From the IMG/VR virus record IMGVR_UViG_2698536317_000003: 56,811 bases of DNA; one strand, 5' to 3'. The notes below the pieces were generated by a model. The model was not told where the DNA came from, made no database searches, and worked only from the letters and a program-made list of their open reading frames with translations. Of the stretch, positions 1 to 10,439 are shown one piece after another (positions within the stretch are counted from its first letter, which is position 1; every line of letters begins with the position of its first letter). This DNA is from a virus. Taxonomy: Duplodnaviria > Heunggongvirae > Uroviricota > Caudoviricetes. The position numbers and the translations under genes were made by a program.

Positions 1-1446
1 ATGAGTATGTCATCCATACCGTCGTCCTCCCAATCCGGGAAGCTCTATGGCTGGGTCGAAAGAATTGGTAACAAGGTTCCCCATCCTTTTTTGCTCTTTA
101 TCTATTTGATAATCGTACTCATGGTGACGACGGCAATTTTGTCAGCCTTTGGCGTCAGTGCGAAAAACCCGACCGATGGTACGCCGGTGGTGGTGAAAAA
201 CCTGCTCAGTGTGGAAGGATTACACTGGTTTTTACCCAATGTGATTAAAAACTTTAGCGGTTTTGCTCCACTTGGAGCGATCCTGGCGCTGGTTTTAGGT
301 GCCGGTCTGGCGGAGCGCGTCGGCTTACTGCCAGCGCTAATGGTTAAAATGGCATCGCATGTTAATGCCCGCTACGCCAGTTATATGGTGCTGTTTATTG
401 CTTTTTTCAGCCACATTTCTTCCGATGCGGCGTTAGTGATCATGCCACCGATGGGTGCGCTGATTTTTCTGGCGGTGGGCAGGCATCCAGTTGCAGGTTT
501 ACTGGCTGCCATTGCAGGCGTAGGTTGCGGCTTTACGGCTAATTTACTGATTGTCACAACCGACGTGTTGCTGTCGGGGATCAGCACGGAAGCGGCGGCT
601 GCGTTCAATCCGCAAATGCACGTCAGTGTAATTGATAACTGGTATTTTATGGCCAGCTCCGTAGTCGTACTGACGATTGTTGGCGGCCTGATAACCGACA
701 AAATCATCGAGCCACGATTAGGTCAATGGCAGGGAAACAGCGATGAGAAACTGCAGACATTGACCGAAAGTCAGCGTTTTGGTTTACGCATAGCAGGTGT
801 CGTATCGCTACTTTTTATTGCTGCGATCGCGCTGATGGTGATCCCGGAAAACGGGATATTGCGCGATCCGATTAATCACACCGTGATGCCATCACCCTTT
901 ATTAAAGGTATCGTGCCACTGATCATTCTTTTTTTCTTTGTTGTCTCGCTGGCTTATGGCATCGCTACCCGCACAATTCGACGTCAGGCGGATTTACCGC
1001 ATTTAATGATTGAACCGATGAAAGAGATGGCGGGATTTATCGTGATGGTTTTTCCCCTCGCCCAATTTGTCGCCATGTTTAACTGGAGCAACATGGGGAA
1101 ATTCATCGCCGTGGGGCTGACCGATATACTGGAAAGTTCAGGGCTTAGCGGCATACCGGCGTTTGTCGGTCTGGCGTTGCTTTCCTCTTTCTTATGCATG
1201 TTTATTGCCAGCGGTTCCGCAATCTGGTCGATTCTGGCCCCCATTTTCGTACCAATGTTTATGCTACTTGGCTTTCACCCGGCATTTGCGCAAATCCTCT
1301 TTCGTATTGCCGACTCATCCGTATTGCCTTTAGCGCCGGTATCTCCTTTTGTCCCACTGTTTCTTGGATTCCTGCAACGCTACAAACCAGACGCGAAACT
1401 GGGTACTTACTATTCGTTAGTCTTGCCCTATCCGCTTATCTTTTGA
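1..1446 (+). CDS. abgT: AbgT-family transporter (p-aminobenzoyl-glutamate transporter-like); host gene flanking the prophage, C-terminus possibly altered
   Basis: 481-aa polytopic membrane ORF starting at window position 1; sequence recalled as AbgT-like; ORF ends about 150 bp before phage tail-fibre gene. Confidence 0.7.
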   Translation: MSMSSIPSSSQSGKLYGWVERIGNKVPHPFLLFIYLIIVLMVTTAILSAFGVSAKNPTDGTPVVVKNLLSVEGLHWFLPNVIKNFSGFAPLGAILALVLGAGLAERVGLLPALMVKMASHVNARYASYMVLFIAFFSHISSDAALVIMPPMGALIFLAVGRHPVAGLLAAIAGVGCGFTANLLIVTTDVLLSGISTEAAAAFNPQMHVSVIDNWYFMASSVVVLTIVGGLITDKIIEPRLGQWQGNSDEKLQTLTESQRFGLRIAGVVSLLFIAAIALMVIPENGILRDPINHTVMPSPFIKGIVPLIILFFFVVSLAYGIATRTIRRQADLPHLMIEPMKEMAGFIVMVFPLAQFVAMFNWSNMGKFIAVGLTDILESSGLSGIPAFVGLALLSSFLCMFIASGSAIWSILAPIFVPMFMLLGFHPAFAQILFRIADSSVLPLAPVSPFVPLFLGFLQRYKPDAKLGTYYSLVLPYPLIF

Positions 1447-1594: not shown

Positions 1595-4264
1595 TTATTT
1601 TTCGCTTCCAGTCAACTTACTGACAAGCGCTTCAAGTTTTGCGATACGCTCATCCATTGCGGCAATGTTGGCGCGTAGGCTGGCGTTTTCTTCTTCCAGT
1701 TCGGTTACGCGGTTATCCGTTTCGCGTGCCACCTGGACAAGTAAACCAGTCACTGCGGCGTAGTCAACATTGAGGTAACGCGTTTCCTCGCGTAACTCGT
1801 TGCCGTCAGTGGTCGGGCCTTGTAACGCTTCACCGTAATGAGTAAACGATCCCACAGCTTCCGGCAGCGCCTCCATTACCTCCTGAGCGATAACGCCAGC
1901 GTAAGGCAGGCCGTTTTCCTTGAGGGTGTAGGTGTACCCGTTCATTTTACGGATGGCTTCAGTTGCATCACCTATAACCTGAATGTTGTCTTTTAAGTCC
2001 CTGTCTGATGATTGGGTAACTGAAGTGCATGTGATAGTGCCTTCAACCGCAAGCGAAGCAGAACCATCGGAAAGGTATTTAGCCACAAACAGCGTTTTTA
2101 ATGATGTTTGTGCGCCGTTTGTATCAACAGCTTTAACCTCATAATTCAGCGGGGATGATGAACCGCCCCATGTCATCACCTGTACGTTTGCCGAGGTTGT
2201 TGCGTAAGCAATATGCCTTATGAAACGTGTGTGCGTGCTATCAAAGATATAATGACCACTAAAATGATTGTCTGCTGTCCATACGTTTGCTGTATTAAGC
2301 GTTGCAAGTTGACACCAATCCTTGATCGTTCCATTTTCAATACTTCTTGCATAGAATGATGAGTTGCGCCCGGCGAACTGGGTAGCATAGTTACCGCTAA
2401 AGGTGACATGAAAACCACCCGCAACGCCAATACCCAAAGGACCATTGTCACTGCCTGCGATTGGCTTAAACTTCTCTACAGCATCCGTATGCTGATCGTT
2501 CCAGTTTTGCCCAGCATTTATGGCGTAACCTTTAGATGATCCTATCAGGCCATTTATGGTTAGTTTGGGCATCGTCATTGATATGTCTTCACCAACGGTA
2601 ATTCCGTTAAACAGACCTACGCGAGCACCACTACAAATATAATGGAGTCCTTCAGTTGTTGCAGAATAAAAACCACAACGCCCCATTCTGAAATCAAACA
2701 TAACCTGTAGGTTTTTATATGAACCTAAGGGGTCTGATACACCCCACGGTATGATCGTTTCTGTATCTTTACCACTATTATATACAACCTGGGCGGTTGG
2801 TACTTGTACTGTTACGCCCACAGGCAAGCGCATTTTAATAGGGAATGCCCTTGCTTCAACAAAAACAAAGAGCAGGTTATCTTTGTCTTTGCTGGAACTA
2901 CAGATAGAATGTAAAGCGATTTCTTTGTCGGTATAACGATTGTAAAAACCGTAACCTGCATCCTTTCTGTCACTCCACCCGCCAGTCCTTACATACCCGG
3001 AAAAGGTGTTACAGTTCATTGGGTAATTACCAGCGCCAGACACTGTAACAATATCGATCTGATAGCCAGTCAGGTAAGCGTTGTAATAATTGGCGTTTAT
3101 AATTATAGGGTAATACTTACCATCCTCAACGCCTTCCGGGGCTTCGATTGTTATTATCTCGCCACCGCCTATGGTTGGGATATTGATGTTTCTCCTTGTC
3201 TGTTCAGCGTTTTTAGGTTTGAAAGAGTCGGCTATAAATTCGCCGTTTATGTTGAGGCTTGCGTATTTGCTCACGCCGCCAGATCTTAAATGCATTGTTA
3301 ACTGGTCTGGCGAAGAAAGGTTTGTCTCAGGGTATAGTGCACCATAAATACGCTCCGATCCTGATGTACCAACCAAAACGCTGGAAAGAATACCTCCCGC
3401 AACCCATCCGGTAGTCACGTCAGTAGCTCTTTTTAGCGATACATTAGCAAACTGAGGACTATTTGAAGACCCAACGCCCAGGTTTGTTCTTGCTGTGTCT
3501 GCATCTCCTGCACCAGTGCCGCCAGCAGAAATTGAAAGCGGTAGATATTTACTAGCCTCTGAGTCGAAACAACCCCACGTTCCTGAATCATAGACGGTAA
3601 GGAATTTATTTGCGTTTTGAGAGCATACGCGTGTTTCTCCTGTTCTTTGAATAAGCCTGTTTACTTCATCCTTGCGTGCGTGACGTGTCCAGTTCGGTCC
3701 TGATGTTGCGACCCATGTGTAAGTATAAAGTGATCGCGTAGACCAACCGACAAAGACGCCTGCATACGAAGGCGATGTATCCTGCTGACAGATAAATCCA
3801 CTCAAAAATGATTCACCAGCCGCTACGGAAGGAAAACCCTTAGTCGTTTCCTTTATGCGCAAAAAGCCAACGTAAGAAGACGGATTGCCTGATATATCGA
3901 CGCAATCTCGCGGCTCTGGACCCAAGCCAATATTGCTGCCATCTATTGCGCTTGATATTTCATCTTCCTTTTCCTGATAAAAACGAAGCGTTTCTGCTAC
4001 ATCCTGGGCAAGTCCATCAACTGAGATCGAGTCAGAAAGCAGAATGCTAAATTTTGTCCCGGCGGCGATTGCGGGGTTAGCCGCTGGCGTTACTGACAGT
4101 TCAGTACCGCTCTTGATTTCTGTGATGGTAAAGATCTGAATGGGGTTGCTAATAGCAATAAGCGTGCAACCTACACGAATGAGAGAAAGCGGCGCGGAGA
4201 AGTTTGTGCCCGTGCCTTTAACAGTATTGCCGTTGATGGCAATTGTTCCAGTTGTGTAAATCAT
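1595..4264 (-). CDS. Phage tail fibre protein with C-terminal intramolecular-chaperone (peptidase S74-like) domain and terminal coiled coil
   Basis: 889-aa ORF; C-terminal region contains SSDRDLKDNI-type Ser/Lys motif and heptad-rich tail (ELEEENASLRANIAAMDERIAKLEALV) typical of auto-cleaving tail fibre/endosialidase chaperone domains. Confidence 0.65.
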   Translation of the reverse strand: MIYTTGTIAINGNTVKGTGTNFSAPLSLIRVGCTLIAISNPIQIFTITEIKSGTELSVTPAANPAIAAGTKFSILLSDSISVDGLAQDVAETLRFYQEKEDEISSAIDGSNIGLGPEPRDCVDISGNPSSYVGFLRIKETTKGFPSVAAGESFLSGFICQQDTSPSYAGVFVGWSTRSLYTYTWVATSGPNWTRHARKDEVNRLIQRTGETRVCSQNANKFLTVYDSGTWGCFDSEASKYLPLSISAGGTGAGDADTARTNLGVGSSNSPQFANVSLKRATDVTTGWVAGGILSSVLVGTSGSERIYGALYPETNLSSPDQLTMHLRSGGVSKYASLNINGEFIADSFKPKNAEQTRRNINIPTIGGGEIITIEAPEGVEDGKYYPIIINANYYNAYLTGYQIDIVTVSGAGNYPMNCNTFSGYVRTGGWSDRKDAGYGFYNRYTDKEIALHSICSSSKDKDNLLFVFVEARAFPIKMRLPVGVTVQVPTAQVVYNSGKDTETIIPWGVSDPLGSYKNLQVMFDFRMGRCGFYSATTEGLHYICSGARVGLFNGITVGEDISMTMPKLTINGLIGSSKGYAINAGQNWNDQHTDAVEKFKPIAGSDNGPLGIGVAGGFHVTFSGNYATQFAGRNSSFYARSIENGTIKDWCQLATLNTANVWTADNHFSGHYIFDSTHTRFIRHIAYATTSANVQVMTWGGSSSPLNYEVKAVDTNGAQTSLKTLFVAKYLSDGSASLAVEGTITCTSVTQSSDRDLKDNIQVIGDATEAIRKMNGYTYTLKENGLPYAGVIAQEVMEALPEAVGSFTHYGEALQGPTTDGNELREETRYLNVDYAAVTGLLVQVARETDNRVTELEEENASLRANIAAMDERIAKLEALVSKLTGSEK

Positions 4265-4423
4265 CGCAATGACTCCATTATGTTAATTAACGGAATAATT
4301 CTACCATTTTGTGATCTTTGTTGCATTTTCTGCTTACACAAAATGTATTTGTTGATTTATGTCAATGTTGCGTAAATGCGGTTTATGGATACTACAAACA
4401 ACGAAACAACGGAGGGTAAGACA

Positions 4424-4663
4424 ATGAAAGGCTTTAAAAATATAGCTATCGCTGCAATGGTTGCTGGTCTGGTTGGTTGTGCTGATATGCCGAAACGTGA
4501 ATGCACGGCAACTTACCAAACTGGCGGTAATGAGTATGCGGTTGCAGTCTTCGGTGTCGCGGATGTTGGCGGTCATAAAATGGTTAAGGCCGGGTATCCG
4601 TTTAACTTCCAATGGGTAAGCGTTGACAACTTCAATAAAACGGATTGCCCGGAACTAAATTAA
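4424..4663 (+). CDS. Small lipoprotein (signal peptide plus lipobox LVGC), opposite strand to tail genes; candidate Cor/Llp-like superinfection-exclusion protein
   Basis: GGAGGG RBS 8 nt before ATG at 4424; MKGFKNIAIAAMVAGLVGC signal/lipobox. Confidence 0.55.
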   Translation: MKGFKNIAIAAMVAGLVGCADMPKRECTATYQTGGNEYAVAVFGVADVGGHKMVKAGYPFNFQWVSVDNFNKTDCPELN

Positions 4664-5292
4664 TCATAGGCATCGGTTTTGATGGCGGTTATGGCGTTAC
4701 CGTGGTTTATATAGCCAGTAGGATTATATACGCCACCAGCCGTAACGCCATAGATTCTTGTTTTGCTGCCGTTATAGTATGCGGCAGCATAAATAGACGC
4801 TGAACCTTGCCCAACAACCGCGCCCAACAATTGCGGGCAAATTGCGTATGATCCTGAAAGTGTCTGATCTATATTTATACCCCCACTATTACCTGGTGAA
4901 CCGACTGTAACAATGTCCGTTAATATTCTTGATTCATTAGTTAGCACCAGTTCCCCCGAAGCGTTCCAGATAGCCATGCCCCACTTAGGGAGCGAAGGTG
5001 GGAAAATAGAAAACACATATACAGTAGCAGTATAGGTATTCTTAGTGTCCCTACCAAAAGCGCAAAGTATCTGCCCAGAGTTGGCCCTGCTAACGCTTGC
5101 TGTGACACCGCCTATACTTGTTTTTACGAATACCATTACAGGCTTGTTTGTTGGGACTGCAATGTATCTTGATGTGTTTTGCGTTGGTGGGCAAGAAATA
5201 TCTTGCCTTGTGTATAGACATATGGGCGTCGCTTCCGGTGTAACGAAAATATTCCCGTTACTTAATCTTAAATAAGCTCCGAATGTTGCCAT
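4660..5292 (-). CDS. Hypothetical tail-associated protein (MATFG paralogue, 210 aa)
   Basis: ORF between J and tail fibre; shares N-terminal MATFG motif with upstream neighbour. Confidence 0.4.
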   Translation of the reverse strand: MATFGAYLRLSNGNIFVTPEATPICLYTRQDISCPPTQNTSRYIAVPTNKPVMVFVKTSIGGVTASVSRANSGQILCAFGRDTKNTYTATVYVFSIFPPSLPKWGMAIWNASGELVLTNESRILTDIVTVGSPGNSGGINIDQTLSGSYAICPQLLGAVVGQGSASIYAAAYYNGSKTRIYGVTAGGVYNPTGYINHGNAITAIKTDAYD

Positions 5293-5603
5293 TAAGCCGC
5301 CTCCGCAAATATAACAATTTCACACTGTGATGCGGGCCATATATTGGCTCCTACTGTATTACCTGCCGATGAAATTGATACGGTTCCGCCAGAAATTGTA
5401 ATCCTTCTACGCGTCGTTGATAACGTACCATGATCAAGCGTCATGCCGTATGATAATTTGCATCCGGTAGGAACGGTAAAGCTATATGTGCCTGATACTT
5501 GTCCTGAGGATAGCGAAATATAACCAACAACTACTGAAGGTTTGATTCCGTAGTTATTTGGATTTCCGTTGGCATCCCAGGTGGCTATGCCGAAAGTAGC
5601 CAT
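5292..5603 (-). CDS. Hypothetical tail-associated protein (MATFG paralogue, 103 aa)
   Basis: ORF immediately downstream of J; N-terminus MATFGIATWDANGN. Confidence 0.4.
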   Translation of the reverse strand: MATFGIATWDANGNPNNYGIKPSVVVGYISLSSGQVSGTYSFTVPTGCKLSYGMTLDHGTLSTTRRRITISGGTVSISSAGNTVGANIWPASQCEIVIFAEAA

Positions 5604-5654
5604 AATTGCACCTCCTTAATAAAACTGAGGCCGAACAAATTCGGCCCCTTAATT

Positions 5655-8600
5655 TTACCATGATCCGGTAATTCGTCCAATTTGGACGCGCAACCTACCG
5701 TTTCCATCCCTAACGGAAATGGTTGTATTTGTTAGTTTCATCGCGCCCTCACCACTTACAGAACCGTAGTTTTCAAATGTGCCTGATTTATCCAGCTTCC
5801 AGCCTGTGCTATTGGAAACATAGTTGTTTGATTGAATGTATGAACCAATTTTTGCATTAGTGATTGACGCGTCTTTAATAAACGCCTCGCGCACATACAT
5901 TGCACCGTTAGACACATAGAAAGGCGTTGTATATGTGCCGTTTGCTGCGGTCATCAATACGAAGCGGTCAACAAGGAAGATACACTGCGATTGAACGTTA
6001 GTACCGTTTCCAGTCAGCCCAAGCGACATACCTGTTGCATACTTCATGCCGTTGTTGTCGGTTGCCAGCTTGATGGAATACGTCGCATCGACATTACCTT
6101 TGAAGTCGGTTAACGCTTTTGACGTCGTTTCTATCGCTGTTGTGTTCCCGTTAACGGTCACTGTTAGCTGATCGATTTTGCTTGATAATGCCTCGTCAGC
6201 CGTTGCCATAGACTGTGACCATTCTGTAATACTTGAGTTTACGGAATCGAAAGACGCTGAGATCTGGACGAATTTTTCAGCGCTTGATGCTTCATGCGTA
6301 GAAAGCGCCGTTGATACCTCAGACACCTTCGAGTTAATCGTACTGGTAAGCGATGAGTTAAGGCTACTTATCGCGTCAGTGCGTGCCTTCGTTTCGTCTG
6401 CAATTGCCTTGTCAATACGGGTCACGTTGCTTGTAACTTTGCCATCAAGGGTTGAAATTGACGCATTCACGCCACTGATGGCTTGTGCTCTGGCGCTGGC
6501 CTCATCAGCAATCGCCTGGTCCAGTCTGCTAACTTCGGATTCAGTGTTGCTTTCGAGGGTGTTAATGCTCGCATTCACTCCACTGATAGCTTCGGTTCTT
6601 GCGCTGGTTTCGTTGGCAATAGCCTGATCCAAACGTTTAACGCTGGCGTCGGTTTTCTTGTCGAGCGCTGAAATGCTTGCGTTAACGTCGCTCACTGCCT
6701 GGCTGCGTGCGCTGGTTTCGTCGGCGATGGCCTGATCAAGGCGGGAAACACTCGCTTCGGTTTTCTTATCAAGATCCGTGATCGATGCTTTTACCACGCT
6801 AACCGCTTCCGCTGTAGCCTTTTTCTCTTCAGCGATAACATTGTCAATACGGTCAATTTGCGCGTTGGTTTCTTTGCGTCCTTTCTTGTATTGGGCAGTA
6901 AGAGTAACACGCGTGTTGGTTTGAGCGATTGAGTTGTTAATCAGAGCAATCGAGGCGTTTTGCAGGCTTGCTTTGGTCTGGCTTATTTCGTCGCTGTTCT
7001 TGTCAACGTTGTTTTCAACCTTACCCAGTTCGGCGCTGATTCCAGATATAGCCTGCGCACGGGCGCTTGACTCGTCAGCAATAGCCTGGTCCAAGCGTTT
7101 GACGCTGGCGTTTGTGTTACTTTCGAGCGTTGTTAAATCAGCTTTGACCTCTGTTATTGCGTCGCTTCTTGCCTGAGTTTCGTCAGATATTGCCTTATCG
7201 AGTCTGCTCACGCTGGCGTCGGTTTTGCTTTCAAGATTGCTTATTGAGGCATTAACGCCGCTGATTGCCTGCGCACGGGCGCTTGATTCGTCGGCAATTG
7301 CTTGATCAAGACGGTTCACGCTGGCGTCAGTTTTCTTGTCAAGATCAGCGATCGATGCGTTCACGTTATTAATTGCTTCTGCGCGGGCGCTTGATTCGTC
7401 TGCCACTGCGCGTTCCACGCTGGAGATCTGACCCTTAAGGTTGGAATCCATCGTGTTCATTTCTGCCGTGATGGTTTTCAGCGATTCAGCCGTGGCCCGC
7501 TTCTCTTCGGCAATAACGTTGTCGATGCTGTCAATCTGCGCGTTTGTTTCTGATTGCCATTTCTTGTACTGTGCAGTGAGCGTAACCCGCGTGTTGGTCT
7601 GCGCGAGAGAGTTATTAATCAGCGCCAAAGATGCGTTTTGCAGGCTTGCTTTTGCTTGCGCCAGTTCGCTGTCGATTCTTTCGCTGGATACCTCTAGCGA
7701 GTCAATCCTTACCTCATGTTGCCCAATACCATCGGTGTTTTCACCAACCTTTTTATAAAGATCTTCCGTCTCTTTTTTCAGCGTGTCAGTGTCAGCTTTT
7801 ATTTCACCTGTTTCTGTGATTAAGCTGTCAGTGTCAGTCCTCAATTCGTCAGTGATGTTTGTCAGGTTGTCAGTTGCAGTTTTTAGGTTGTCAGTAGCGT
7901 TTTTAAGGTCATTTGTGGCGCTTTCGATAAGGTCGGCACGGTCGCCAAGATCTTTAATGTCGCCAATCATGTCCTTGAACTGTTCTGACTCCATGACATC
8001 CTTCATCACGTAGTCGCTGATTTCGTCGAAGTTTTCAGTCGGTTTTCCTGATGCCTCAACGAAGTCTGACACACCGAAAGCGTTACGCGTGCGCACATAA
8101 ACGTAATATTTATGGCCCGTGTTCATGCCGCCAAAAGTCCATTGGTAGCCTCGCCCGGTGAATTGCGCCAAAGTTGTTACTTTTGACGGGTCAGTGATCT
8201 GATTTTCACCTGAGTAGTAAAACTCATATGCTGTATCAGTTGTCAGGGTTGTTTTGCTGATCGGATACACTGTTGCCTGGAAAACGCCAGGAACCCAATT
8301 AACACCAATCGGGGCGGCTGGCGCACCAATGACCAGATCCACAATACTTTCCGCACCCTTCATGCCAGTGTCATTACGCCCGCGAATACCAAGCGTGTAG
8401 CTGCCAGCGTCGAGGCCATAAAAATCATAGCGGTAGTTCGTGGTTTCATAAGTTGCCACTACACGCCCATCGGCGTTATATACGCGAATTTCAAAGGTCA
8501 GGCGATGCGTTGTTGTCTGTGTTTCCCACGTTGCGCGACATTGAACAGTTTCAGAACCAACATTTAACACCTTCAGGTTTTCGATGTTCGGCACGCGGAA

Positions 8601-10439
8601 GTGATTAAGCGTGTCGTTGTTTACCTCAAAGATTGCGCCTTCATCGACTACAGCCTGTTTGTGAGGATCGTGCTGTGCAGCCTCAATGGTGTACACGCTG
8701 TTGTTTTCGGTTTCCGCTACGCTGGTAATTCGACACAGAACGGGTTTTGCAGATTCAGTCGATACGGCAAATACGGTTCCGTTACGAATCCATGCGGGCG
8801 CTGCCGCAAGGGTAATATTGTTTCCGTTAACTCCAGTGATCTGATGTTTTTTAAACTTGCCGTCGCTGTCCAGTAAGCTGATAGTGTCACCAGTCGCCAC
8901 CAGGTCAGAATCAACCTTGTCTACAGTTATCACCTTCCCGTTATTCGCCACGACGCGACCGCCTAAACGAGCGCCAGCGCGGTTATTGTCGAGTATCTCG
9001 ATAATATCCCCTGGCGTAAAGTGAATCGCGTCACGCGCCATTTTAAACGTGAATTTTGACGGCTCGCGTTTTGCTGTTTCTATCAGCCACTTGCCCGCGC
9101 GGTATGCTTGCCCGCGTGATGTGCACCCGAACGCCTCTAACGTGGTTTCGTTGTAACCATCACGGGCGATCAGTTCATCGTCTGCTACATACTCTTTTGA
9201 TTGCTCCCATCCGTTTTCCGGGTCAGTCCATGATACGATCACGGCGTTGTAGCATTCTGCGCGGGCGATACTTGAACGAGTAAACGCGCCATCAACGACA
9301 TTTGCATTTGTAATGGTGGCGATCGGGTCTAGTGGTGCATCAATCATCACGGTAAGGCGTTGCCCGTCCCATAACGCGATACCCCTGAACATCCCGGCGA
9401 TATTGTCCAGTAAGTCGCGGGCGCTCATTTGCTCTGTGATGTAAGCGTTAAGCGTCATGCGAGGCTCAAGGCCGCCGTAGCCATCATCAACCAACTGGTC
9501 GCAGTATTGAGAAAGCGTATATAATGCGCCGTCGTCAACGTCAATATAACCAGCGTGACGAGCAAGGCCGAAACGCTCGTTTTTAACCAGATAGCGGAAG
9601 ATCCATGCTGGGTTATTGGTGTACGCCTGTTTGAAGCCGCCAAGCCACAAACCGGAATAAGTGCGCTTTTCCGGGTCGTAGTTATCAGGAATATCAACAA
9701 TCAGCCCGCGAAGGTGATAGGTGCGGGTAGGCGTGTCAGCGTACTGATCATGGTCAATTACCGCGCCAGCTACAGCGGTGTGAGGATAAGACAAATTATC
9801 GTCGATTATTTCGCTGTAGCTACTCCATCGCGTATCATTCTGCAACAGATCGCTTGTGCTATCAGCGGTTACACGGCGAACGCGAATATCAAACGGTTTT
9901 TCATCTGGTGCATTGATAATATGCGCTTCAAGATATTCTCCGCTGATCTTACCTGGGCCTATAGTAACGTCTTTAACAAGCGTCCACGTAGAAGAAGACG
10001 AAGGCTTCACGTCAATCATCATCATAACCGATGTGTTATGTTGATTGCTTTGCTCGTCAGATTGTACAAGTGAATCGACGCCGATATTCAGGCGAACGCG
10101 GTTTACGTTAGGATCGGAAACGGTCCTGATTATTGGTGTATCGTGTTTAACCTGTGCGTTAACAATAACGGTTGATTCAATGGCGTTAAAACCGTTAATC
10201 GGTGATTGATCTATCGTACCATTGCGCCACGCTACGCTAATACCGGGGATGCTGGTATTGCCGTTCGCGTCAGTTACAGGGGTGTCATTAAGCATTACGC
10301 TGTTTAATGGCGCATTGGTATTAACAGGACCATAAATCGGACCTTCTGAAATAATGTCGAGTACACGATAAAACTGTTTGTGATATAGATTATCGTTAAT
10401 TAAAGTTGGTGTTTTTGCTTTGCCGCCGCCACTACTCAT
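5655..10439 (-). CDS. J: Host specificity / central tail fibre protein, lambda J-like, with long internal coiled-coil repeat region
   Basis: 1594-aa ORF downstream of I/K/L homologues; N-terminal region J-like; central tandem peptide repeats (RLDQAIADESSARAQAISGVNASI...). Confidence 0.85.
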   Translation of the reverse strand: MSSGGGKAKTPTLINDNLYHKQFYRVLDIISEGPIYGPVNTNAPLNSVMLNDTPVTDANGNTSIPGISVAWRNGTIDQSPINGFNAIESTVIVNAQVKHDTPIIRTVSDPNVNRVRLNIGVDSLVQSDEQSNQHNTSVMMMIDVKPSSSSTWTLVKDVTIGPGKISGEYLEAHIINAPDEKPFDIRVRRVTADSTSDLLQNDTRWSSYSEIIDDNLSYPHTAVAGAVIDHDQYADTPTRTYHLRGLIVDIPDNYDPEKRTYSGLWLGGFKQAYTNNPAWIFRYLVKNERFGLARHAGYIDVDDGALYTLSQYCDQLVDDGYGGLEPRMTLNAYITEQMSARDLLDNIAGMFRGIALWDGQRLTVMIDAPLDPIATITNANVVDGAFTRSSIARAECYNAVIVSWTDPENGWEQSKEYVADDELIARDGYNETTLEAFGCTSRGQAYRAGKWLIETAKREPSKFTFKMARDAIHFTPGDIIEILDNNRAGARLGGRVVANNGKVITVDKVDSDLVATGDTISLLDSDGKFKKHQITGVNGNNITLAAAPAWIRNGTVFAVSTESAKPVLCRITSVAETENNSVYTIEAAQHDPHKQAVVDEGAIFEVNNDTLNHFRVPNIENLKVLNVGSETVQCRATWETQTTTHRLTFEIRVYNADGRVVATYETTNYRYDFYGLDAGSYTLGIRGRNDTGMKGAESIVDLVIGAPAAPIGVNWVPGVFQATVYPISKTTLTTDTAYEFYYSGENQITDPSKVTTLAQFTGRGYQWTFGGMNTGHKYYVYVRTRNAFGVSDFVEASGKPTENFDEISDYVMKDVMESEQFKDMIGDIKDLGDRADLIESATNDLKNATDNLKTATDNLTNITDELRTDTDSLITETGEIKADTDTLKKETEDLYKKVGENTDGIGQHEVRIDSLEVSSERIDSELAQAKASLQNASLALINNSLAQTNTRVTLTAQYKKWQSETNAQIDSIDNVIAEEKRATAESLKTITAEMNTMDSNLKGQISSVERAVADESSARAEAINNVNASIADLDKKTDASVNRLDQAIADESSARAQAISGVNASISNLESKTDASVSRLDKAISDETQARSDAITEVKADLTTLESNTNASVKRLDQAIADESSARAQAISGISAELGKVENNVDKNSDEISQTKASLQNASIALINNSIAQTNTRVTLTAQYKKGRKETNAQIDRIDNVIAEEKKATAEAVSVVKASITDLDKKTEASVSRLDQAIADETSARSQAVSDVNASISALDKKTDASVKRLDQAIANETSARTEAISGVNASINTLESNTESEVSRLDQAIADEASARAQAISGVNASISTLDGKVTSNVTRIDKAIADETKARTDAISSLNSSLTSTINSKVSEVSTALSTHEASSAEKFVQISASFDSVNSSITEWSQSMATADEALSSKIDQLTVTVNGNTTAIETTSKALTDFKGNVDATYSIKLATDNNGMKYATGMSLGLTGNGTNVQSQCIFLVDRFVLMTAANGTYTTPFYVSNGAMYVREAFIKDASITNAKIGSYIQSNNYVSNSTGWKLDKSGTFENYGSVSGEGAMKLTNTTISVRDGNGRLRVQIGRITGSW
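6290..7700. repeat. Tandem in-frame coding repeats inside J-like gene (short units nested in a longer duplication)
   Basis: Repeated DNA blocks such as gcgcttgattcgtcggcaattgc...; protein blocks ASLQNAS(L/I)ALINNS(L/I)AQTNTRVTLTAQYKK occur twice. Confidence 0.7.

Follow-up and report, generated by a model that had tools for sequence, protein, structure and literature searches.

The window, the whole stretch of 56,811 nucleotides that was analysed, carries two adjacent open reading frames on the minus strand, between the gene for the central fibre protein J and that for a side tail fibre. The small ORF (5292..5603) encodes a protein of 103 amino acids (10.6 kDa) with the N-terminus MATFGIATWDANGN, and the large ORF (4660..5292) one of 210 amino acids (22.1 kDa) with the N-terminus MATFGAYLRLSNGN. 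The ORF list and the raw sequence both confirmed this arrangement, including the start with MATFG that the original prediction had reported for the two products. A TAATG stop/start overlap at 5292 joins the ORFs. The ATG of the small ORF is preceded at 6 nt by a strong Shine-Dalgarno sequence, AAGGAGGT, and that of the large ORF by a GGAGG lying within the 3' end of the small ORF.

The J homologue (5655..10439, minus strand; 1594 amino acids), in which five Pfam J domains were recognised, is located upstream of the pair, with 51 nt between its stop codon and the small ORF. No promoter belonging to the pair itself was found; the small ORF is coupled to the large one, and both are coupled to the late operon. 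A terminator-like scan pointed to a GC-rich hairpin between the J stop codon and the small ORF (5617..5648, minus strand; GGGGCCGAA-TTTG-TTCGGCCTC, followed by AGTTTTATTA), for which RNAfold gave −17.5 kcal/mol. Counterpart hairpins with unrelated sequences are present in 16 out of 76 loci; in the other 60, J and the small ORF abut. Possibly the hairpin acts as an attenuator or terminator and adjusts how strongly the pair is expressed compared with J.

Between the pair and the side tail fibre gene, a feature that the original prediction omitted, lies an ORF on the plus strand (4376..4663) that is convergent with the large ORF and runs 4 nt over its stop codon. Its product matched the NCBIfam equivalog lamb_exclu_cor (7.4e-16; 57.9 bits against a cutoff of 31) as well as PHROG 1119 (2e-23), and has a lipobox, LVGC, at residues 32–35. 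These matches identify it as a predicted Cor superinfection-exclusion lipoprotein of the FhuA type, whose true start is likely M17 at 4424. The side tail fibre (1595..4264, minus strand; 889 amino acids) matched PHROG tail fibre families and, at its C-terminus, PF13884 (Peptidase_S74; 3.6e-14), an intramolecular chaperone; it is context and stands outside the module described below. At 1..1446 follows abgT, recognised from its sequence, which we take to be a chromosomal flank of the E. coli type.

Relatives of the pair

The small protein matched PHROG 557 (5.4e-30) over residues 3–101 of its 103, and a profile search returned 356 homologues. The large protein matched PHROG 425 (8.4e-57) over residues 1–210 and was found by tblastn in 350 phage records at <60% identity. 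Among these are T1, phi80, mEp and HK phages, Dhillonvirus and Klebsiella Webervirus, with a query coverage of 100% in T1, phi80 and the mEp phages. The family of the large protein comprises 144 clusters at the 50%-identity level. Neither protein gave a match in Pfam or NCBIfam, nor in sequence and profile searches of the PDB.

The family, for which the original prediction had no name, exists in the literature, namely as PHROG 557/425, as N15 gp22/gp23 and as the locus after gpJ in BASEL (PMC8594841). In the annotation of phi80 the two genes appear as 'similar to N15 gp22' and 'similar to N15 gp23', followed by cor. A literature search for functional data on N15 gp22/gp23 gave nothing relevant. 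Judged by these matches, the pair is a divergent allele of the J-distal locus of T1, phi80 and N15 (gp22-gp23; PHROG 557 and PHROG 425). The module is already known, is not a new system, and has the window pair as a divergent member. Both protein families, the C-terminal domain of J, the motifs described below and the order J-small-large-cor are the same. In T1, the genes lie between J (gp33) and cor, and cor is on the opposite strand (convergent) as in the window, whereas cor of phi80 is co-directional. The large protein of the window is 43–48% identical to those of T1 and phi80, from which it differs by a 12-amino-acid deletion in the 160–180 region and by its own residues 28–91. The coiled-coil shaft of the window J is much longer than in the T1/phi80/N15 type.

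The closest complete E. coli genome shows 88% nucleotide identity at the locus, and the best protein identity of the window allele to any sequenced phage is 57%; the allele is uncommon. Given this distance from the sequenced phages, its receptor could differ.

Synteny and boundaries of the module

The locus was compared in T1, phi80 and 80 IMG/VR contigs (82 loci altogether), one of the contigs, L003, being 100% identical to the window here. In 79 of the 82 loci, the small ORF is immediately followed by the large ORF. A Cor homologue adjoins the pair in approximately 73, on either strand, and is absent in about 9; in Klebsiella Webervirus phages the pair is likewise found without cor.

The C-terminal ~180 amino acids of J (5655..6197, minus strand; residues ~1415–1594) contain the Pfam domain Phage_Tail_Tip (PF09327; residues 1435–1572, 1.7e-42). 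The last 150 residues are 45–59% identical to T1, phi80 and the other loci (57–59% to phi80 and T1), while the segment from −400 to −150, counted from the C-terminus, is unrelated among the compared loci. BLASTP of the window J against phi80 J gave 41% identity for the last 311 amino acids. The GC content of the J C-terminus is 44.9% and that of the pair 44.2–44.4%, as compared to 48.4% for the whole of J; cor also falls within 44–45%, like the J C-terminus and the pair. Distance matrices of the small protein correlated with those of the conserved part of the large protein (r = 0.88) and of Cor (r = 0.82), the range among small, large and Cor being 0.82–0.88; for the last 150 residues of J against the small protein r was 0.65. 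Because synteny, the break in J conservation, GC content and distance correlations agree, the J C-terminal domain (~150–180 amino acids), the small and large ORFs and cor form one unit of inheritance.

Predicted structures

AlphaFold2 (AF2) predictions based on the family alignments gave confident all-beta monomers, structure prediction having been proposed as a check; Foldseek yielded no match in the PDB at E<0.001 for either model. The small protein (pLDDT 83.1, pTM 0.71) consists of a hairpin motif at residues 1–22 (MATFGIATWDANGNPNNYGIKP) and a 7-strand beta-sandwich at residues 23–102, with pLDDT <65 in residues 1–20 only. Its best Foldseek matches in the PDB are the C-terminal sandwiches of the Sf6 and K64-1 tailspikes, which are weak (E 0.06–0.7, TM 0.36–0.41). 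A lambda J C-terminal (Ig-like) fold has been claimed for the small protein (PMC12309495). J chains were absent from the top 50 Foldseek PDB matches of our small model, although likeness among small beta-sandwiches can escape Foldseek.

The large protein (pLDDT 84.6, pTM 0.81) shows the succession of hairpin and beta-sandwich twice, at residues 1–27 and 28–95 and again at residues 100–120 and 127–205. Low pLDDT is confined to residues 1–20 and 100–120. The best E-value against the PDB was 0.066, and a Foldseek search of BFVD returned solely uncharacterised phage proteins, 19 of them of 205–280 amino acids from diverse phages. Conservation within the family is highest in the second hairpin motif (4933..4995, minus strand; residues 100–120, SLPKWGMAIWNASGELVLTNE), with P102, G105, W109, T118, N119 and E120 invariant. 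Its pLDDT is 57–61, and it aligns with the N-terminus of the small protein. The three hairpin motifs, one in the small and two in the large protein, are the most conserved sequence and at the same time the sole low-confidence AF2 parts of both proteins. Segments that are conserved yet poorly placed when the monomer is modelled often need a partner to fold.

No signal peptide, lipobox or transmembrane segment was detected in the small or the large protein. Maximum 19-residue hydropathy is 1.09 and 0.88 for the two proteins, there is no K or R in the first 8 residues, and neither matched Pfam Ail_Lom. The predicted folds are soluble beta-sandwiches, in contrast to the outer-membrane and membrane-associated labels given in PHROGs. 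[quoted passage not shown]

Three copies of one unit

With BLASTP, the match between the small and the large protein was limited to the first 14 residues; a third copy of the motif was found in the large protein at residues 101–114. Narrow family profiles of the two aligned through a 12-column motif alone. Broad profiles, built from 170 small-family and 156 large-family sequences, were compared using hhalign. Residues 1–80 of the small protein aligned with the N-terminal unit of the large protein (1–80) over 78 columns (94.6% probability, P 6e-8, score 40.1), and residues 3–52 with its C-terminal unit (103–151) over 48 columns (92.3%, P 6e-7, score 36.9). The two units of the large protein aligned with each other over 30 columns (91.4%, P 9e-7, score 33.7). 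With reversed and 30 column-shuffled profiles as controls, no score exceeded 16.9 for the N-terminal unit or 13.0 for the C-terminal one. The suggestion that the two proteins are paralogous holds, at the profile level only. Since the broad-profile scores far exceed the controls, the paralogy is real and the large protein itself is an internal duplication, the pair thus containing three copies of one unit of ~100 amino acids. The shared MATFG N-terminus is no coincidence: it belongs to a motif conserved family-wide in both protein families, which recurs at residues 103–114 of the large protein.

The predicted folds are in keeping with this. The strands of the N-terminal domain of the large protein (25–34, 40–45, 52–58, 65–71, 74–79 and 87–95) mirror those of the small protein (23–31, 38–41, 48–54, 65–71, 74–81 and 94–102).

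A distant relative of the large protein was found among the DUF6453 proteins, which have ~300 amino acids and are encoded directly after J. Neither window protein reaches the Pfam DUF6453 model, even at E≤1. P0312 (330 amino acids), which matches DUF6453 at 8.7e-19, aligned with the large protein in hhalign (96.7%, 158 columns), its residues 157–325 corresponding to residues 42–203. Like the window pair, it is encoded directly after a J with a Phage_Tail_Tip domain. It differs by an additional N-terminal part of ~120 amino acids that begins with the hairpin motif, and by the absence of a separate small ORF. P0312 is possibly a three-in-one fusion. A universal count of three units was rejected: P0320 (307 amino acids) is still preceded by a 94-amino-acid ORF, and for unit 1 of P0312 the motif is the only support. 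The central motif was matched ten times (E 6e-4) in P0318, a repeat protein of 1794 amino acids, and this looks like a chance low-complexity match.

Variation within the large protein

Comparison across related loci, likewise proposed with the original prediction, revealed variation, and this is concentrated in residues 28–91 of the large protein (5020..5211, minus strand), the core of the N-terminal beta-sandwich. In the alleles P0003–P0008 these residues are only 19–30% identical to the window, compared to 75–96% for residues 1–27 and 92–159. Entropy across the family is ~2.0 bits for residues 28–91, with a span of 1.3–2.35 bits for the variable parts 28–91 and 160–195, versus 0.55–1.3 bits for the conserved parts 1–27, 92–159 and 196–210; set against the cassette itself, the conserved parts have 0.6–0.8 bits. 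In the small protein, sequence entropy is low and uniform along its length. Hence a cassette varies inside otherwise near-identical large alleles while the small protein is uniformly conserved. This pattern fits a recombining specificity cassette. A diversity-generating retroelement was considered as its source and rejected, as no template-like repeat is present within the window.

Discussion

We consider it likely that the small and large proteins are the distal host-recognition proteins of a central fibre of the T1/phi80/N15 type and serve tail-tip receptor recognition. With somewhat less assurance, FhuA is probably the receptor; this prediction is based on the neighbouring gene for an FhuA-type Cor exclusion lipoprotein. 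The pair would be transcribed in the late tail operon directly after J, with translation of the small and large proteins coupled. The large protein is proposed as the receptor-binding protein (RBP), capping the trimeric J fibre at its outermost end, and the hypervariable sandwich at residues 28–91, perhaps together with residues 160–195, would contact the outer-membrane protein. The cassette 28–91 is our candidate for the specificity surface. For the small protein we propose the role of a conserved adaptor or partner of the RBP that would help to anchor it on the C-terminal ~180 amino acids of J. This end of J is the putative site on which the pair docks, and it belongs to the exchanged module. 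The three hairpin motifs may represent docking elements that fold upon binding only. The idea of receptor-binding accessory proteins, put forward when the ORFs were first noticed, comes close to this best-supported reading, except that the proteins belong with the central J fibre and not with the side fibre.

Published work on relatives points in the same direction. In BASEL, the allelic variants downstream of gpJ match the terminal receptor of small siphoviruses with no exception, the locus was termed a 'bona fide RBP locus', and dedicated RBPs bound non-covalently to J and encoded together with cognate exclusion proteins were proposed (PMC8594841). A 2026 preprint describes an FhuA-specific family in the locus, with AF3 support for its role as RBP and one or two accessory proteins (bioRxiv 10.64898/2026.04.02.716166). 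The KanT1 paper reports cor together with the two-gene cassette in 10/10 FhuA-dependent Drexlerviridae and Dhillonvirus phages of BASEL (PMC13164509). For the Dhillonvirus JLBYU60, Matusiak et al. [quoted passage not shown] In their AF2-Multimer model the ~23 kDa protein is a monomer capping all three J chains and docks on FhuA, and a size-matched virion band of ~21 kDa was seen by SDS-PAGE in one distant phage (PMC12309495). The JLBYU60 protein is a homologue of the large protein of the window (43.9% identity), with the same proposed role of an FhuA-binding J cap. In the cryo-EM structure of T1, J beyond residue 820, i.e. the distal tip, is without resolved density (PMC11945409). The family is not exclusive to FhuA, since Stx phage 24B, which depends on BamA, has a structurally similar pair (PMC12309495) and the Webervirus pair occurs without cor.

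An unlikely alternative is that the small protein, the large protein or both assist folding of the J tip or the side fibre as non-structural assembly chaperones, missing from the finished virion, and that the J C-terminal domain itself binds the receptor. Small genes just 3' of fibre genes often encode chaperones, such as lambda Tfa and T4 gp57A/gp38; the uniform conservation of the small protein would also suit a chaperone of the conserved J C-terminus, and J has been taken as the RBP of FhuA phages by some authors (PMC10373560). Neither protein, however, has a Tfa-type (Caudo_TAP) Pfam match, the side fibre comes with its own Peptidase_S74 chaperone, and the pair lies upstream of the side fibre gene, not after it; a function in fibre assembly, as was originally also considered, finds no support here. 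The cassette moreover varies in alleles whose J C-terminus is 87–91% identical to that of the window, so that specificity would vary through the large protein rather than through J. BASEL found a correlation between the locus of the pair and receptor specificity (PMC8594841).

The KanT1 paper, for its part, suggests a role in exclusion (PMC13164509). Accordingly read, the pair would be membrane-associated accessories of Cor superinfection exclusion, helping to block FhuA in the infected or lysogenic cell. The tight linkage to cor and the distance correlation of 0.82 with it are consistent with such a function, which we nevertheless hold to be quite improbable. The proteins are devoid of the membrane-targeting features listed above, and published estimates of membrane affinity are low (PMC12309495). 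The pair follows the orientation of the J operon and is abutting or coupled to J, whereas cor frequently lies on the other strand, as here; Webervirus and about 9 of the 82 loci have the pair but no cor beside it. A hypervariable cassette, finally, is expected of a virion protein in contact with a receptor rather than of the partner of a conserved lipoprotein. A role as lysogenic-conversion morons unrelated to the tail, like lambda lom, is suggested by the position between J and stf and by the category of PHROG 425 ('moron, auxiliary metabolic gene and host takeover'), but is highly improbable given the coupling to the late operon with no promoter of their own, the presence of the pair in the strictly virulent T1, Dhillonvirus and Webervirus, and the lack of a secretion signal and of an Ail/Lom Pfam match.

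Within the preferred reading, in which the pair caps J and recognises the receptor, the stoichiometry deserves consideration. The published JLBYU60 model contains 3 small and 1 large protein. The paralogy seen in the window raises a 1:1 alternative, because both halves of the large protein are paralogous to the small one. The three homologous units of the pair equal the chains of the J trimer in number, so that a 1:1 heterodimer is conceivable as a pseudo-trimer. Each hairpin would dock on one J chain, and the three-fold symmetry of the fibre end would give way to an asymmetric cap that presents one hypervariable sandwich to a monomeric receptor. We put this forward tentatively and regard it as rather improbable. 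P0312 lends it partial, weak support, there being no small ORF between P0312 and its J, whereas P0320 with its separate 94-amino-acid ORF speaks against that support. Were the pseudo-trimer true, the published model of 3 small and 1 large would be wrong, and duplication and fusion (1+2 here, possibly 3-in-1 in DUF6453) would solve the trimer-to-monomer mismatch at the siphophage tip. In any case, three copies of one unit provide a concrete, testable model of how a cap attaches to a trimeric fibre.

The pair, the end of J and cor appear to be an exchangeable cassette that sets the terminal receptor in T1-, phi80-, N15- and Dhillonvirus-type phages, and its right annotation would allow better prediction of the receptors that prophages and therapeutic phages use. 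The divergent window allele adds natural variation for mapping the specificity surface, notably the cassette 28–91.

The same logic is known from T5 pb5/Llp and from Oekolampad RBP/Rtp45, where a separate, dedicated monomeric RBP is bound non-covalently to a J-like or pb4-like trimer and a lipoprotein blocking the same receptor is encoded alongside (PMC9586334, PMC12685063). These systems differ in showing no sequence or fold likeness to the window proteins, and the window system is split into two paralogues; pb5 (PDB 8A8C and others) was absent from the PDB sequence and profile matches and from the top 50 Foldseek matches of the large model. In both the Oekolampad RBP and T5 pb5, the part nearest the tail is poorly ordered (PMC12685063), and the conserved motifs predicted here at low confidence parallel this.

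Gene neighbourhood of the pair in the window

The central tail-fibre gene J (5655–10439, minus strand), upstream of the small and large ORFs, encodes a product of 1594 aa, which is unusually long compared with the 1172–1192 aa found in phages T1 and phi80. Relative to phi80 J, the window protein aligns over the N-terminal ~810 aa and the last ~180 aa, and its middle is occupied by an expanded coiled-coil region containing many SRLDQAIADE-SAR-ISGVNASI-like protein repeats. At the DNA level, only a short 21-nt repeat was detected in the gene (7848–7909; TRF).

The spacer separating the J stop codon from the small ORF (5292–5603, minus strand) contains a GC-rich hairpin with a U-run (5617–5648, minus strand). 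J and the small ORF abut in 60 of the 76 related loci (gap of −1 to +2), and the remaining 16 have a spacer of 36–51 nt with a hairpin; these 16 hairpins represent at least four sequences that are unrelated to one another. The hairpin at 5617–5648 may act as an attenuator setting the expression ratio of J to the large protein, the proposed receptor-binding protein. Hairpin spacers were also seen at the related loci L055, L008, L026, L005 and L007.

The cor lipoprotein gene (4376–4663, plus strand) runs convergently to the late operon, with a 4-nt overlap at the stop codon of the large ORF (4660–5292, minus strand). Transcription of the late genes that continues towards the side tail fibre gene would therefore cross cor in the antisense direction. 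The true start of Cor is likely M17 at 4424, and its lipobox reads LVGC.

Window positions 1–1446 (plus strand) belong to an abgT-like transporter gene; the window begins inside this gene, which places one prophage end near 1.5 kb. At the pair locus, IMG/VR UViG_2695420423_000006 is 100% identical to the window, and no complete RefSeq E. coli genome was found to carry the window allele at more than 88% nucleotide identity.

The pair in other settings

Webervirus phages such as Klebsiella phage vB_KpnS_Alina (NC_049837.1) have the J-small-large order but lack cor, and a convergent tail fibre gene comes next. A strict link between the pair and Cor or FhuA, the predicted receptor, therefore does not hold. 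A distant pair (93 aa + 204 aa) occurs at 4711–5612 of locus L085 in the 108-kb circular record of Escherichia phage PhiR41_1 (PV340561.1), where the surrounding genes are hypothetical or of early type (RNase HI, ea22) and no annotated tail gene is nearby. Another (92 aa + 204 aa), preceded by a further 91-aa ORF, is found at 3720–4615 of locus L090, a T1-like metagenomic contig, where J and the pair converge rather than run in the same direction.

P0312, a distant relative of the large protein (330 aa, Pfam DUF6453), is encoded at 3396–4388 of locus L087 (Logan ERR14656792 contig). Its gene overlaps the J stop, the small ORF being absent between the two, and P0312 resembles a single-chain form of the pair with three motifs.
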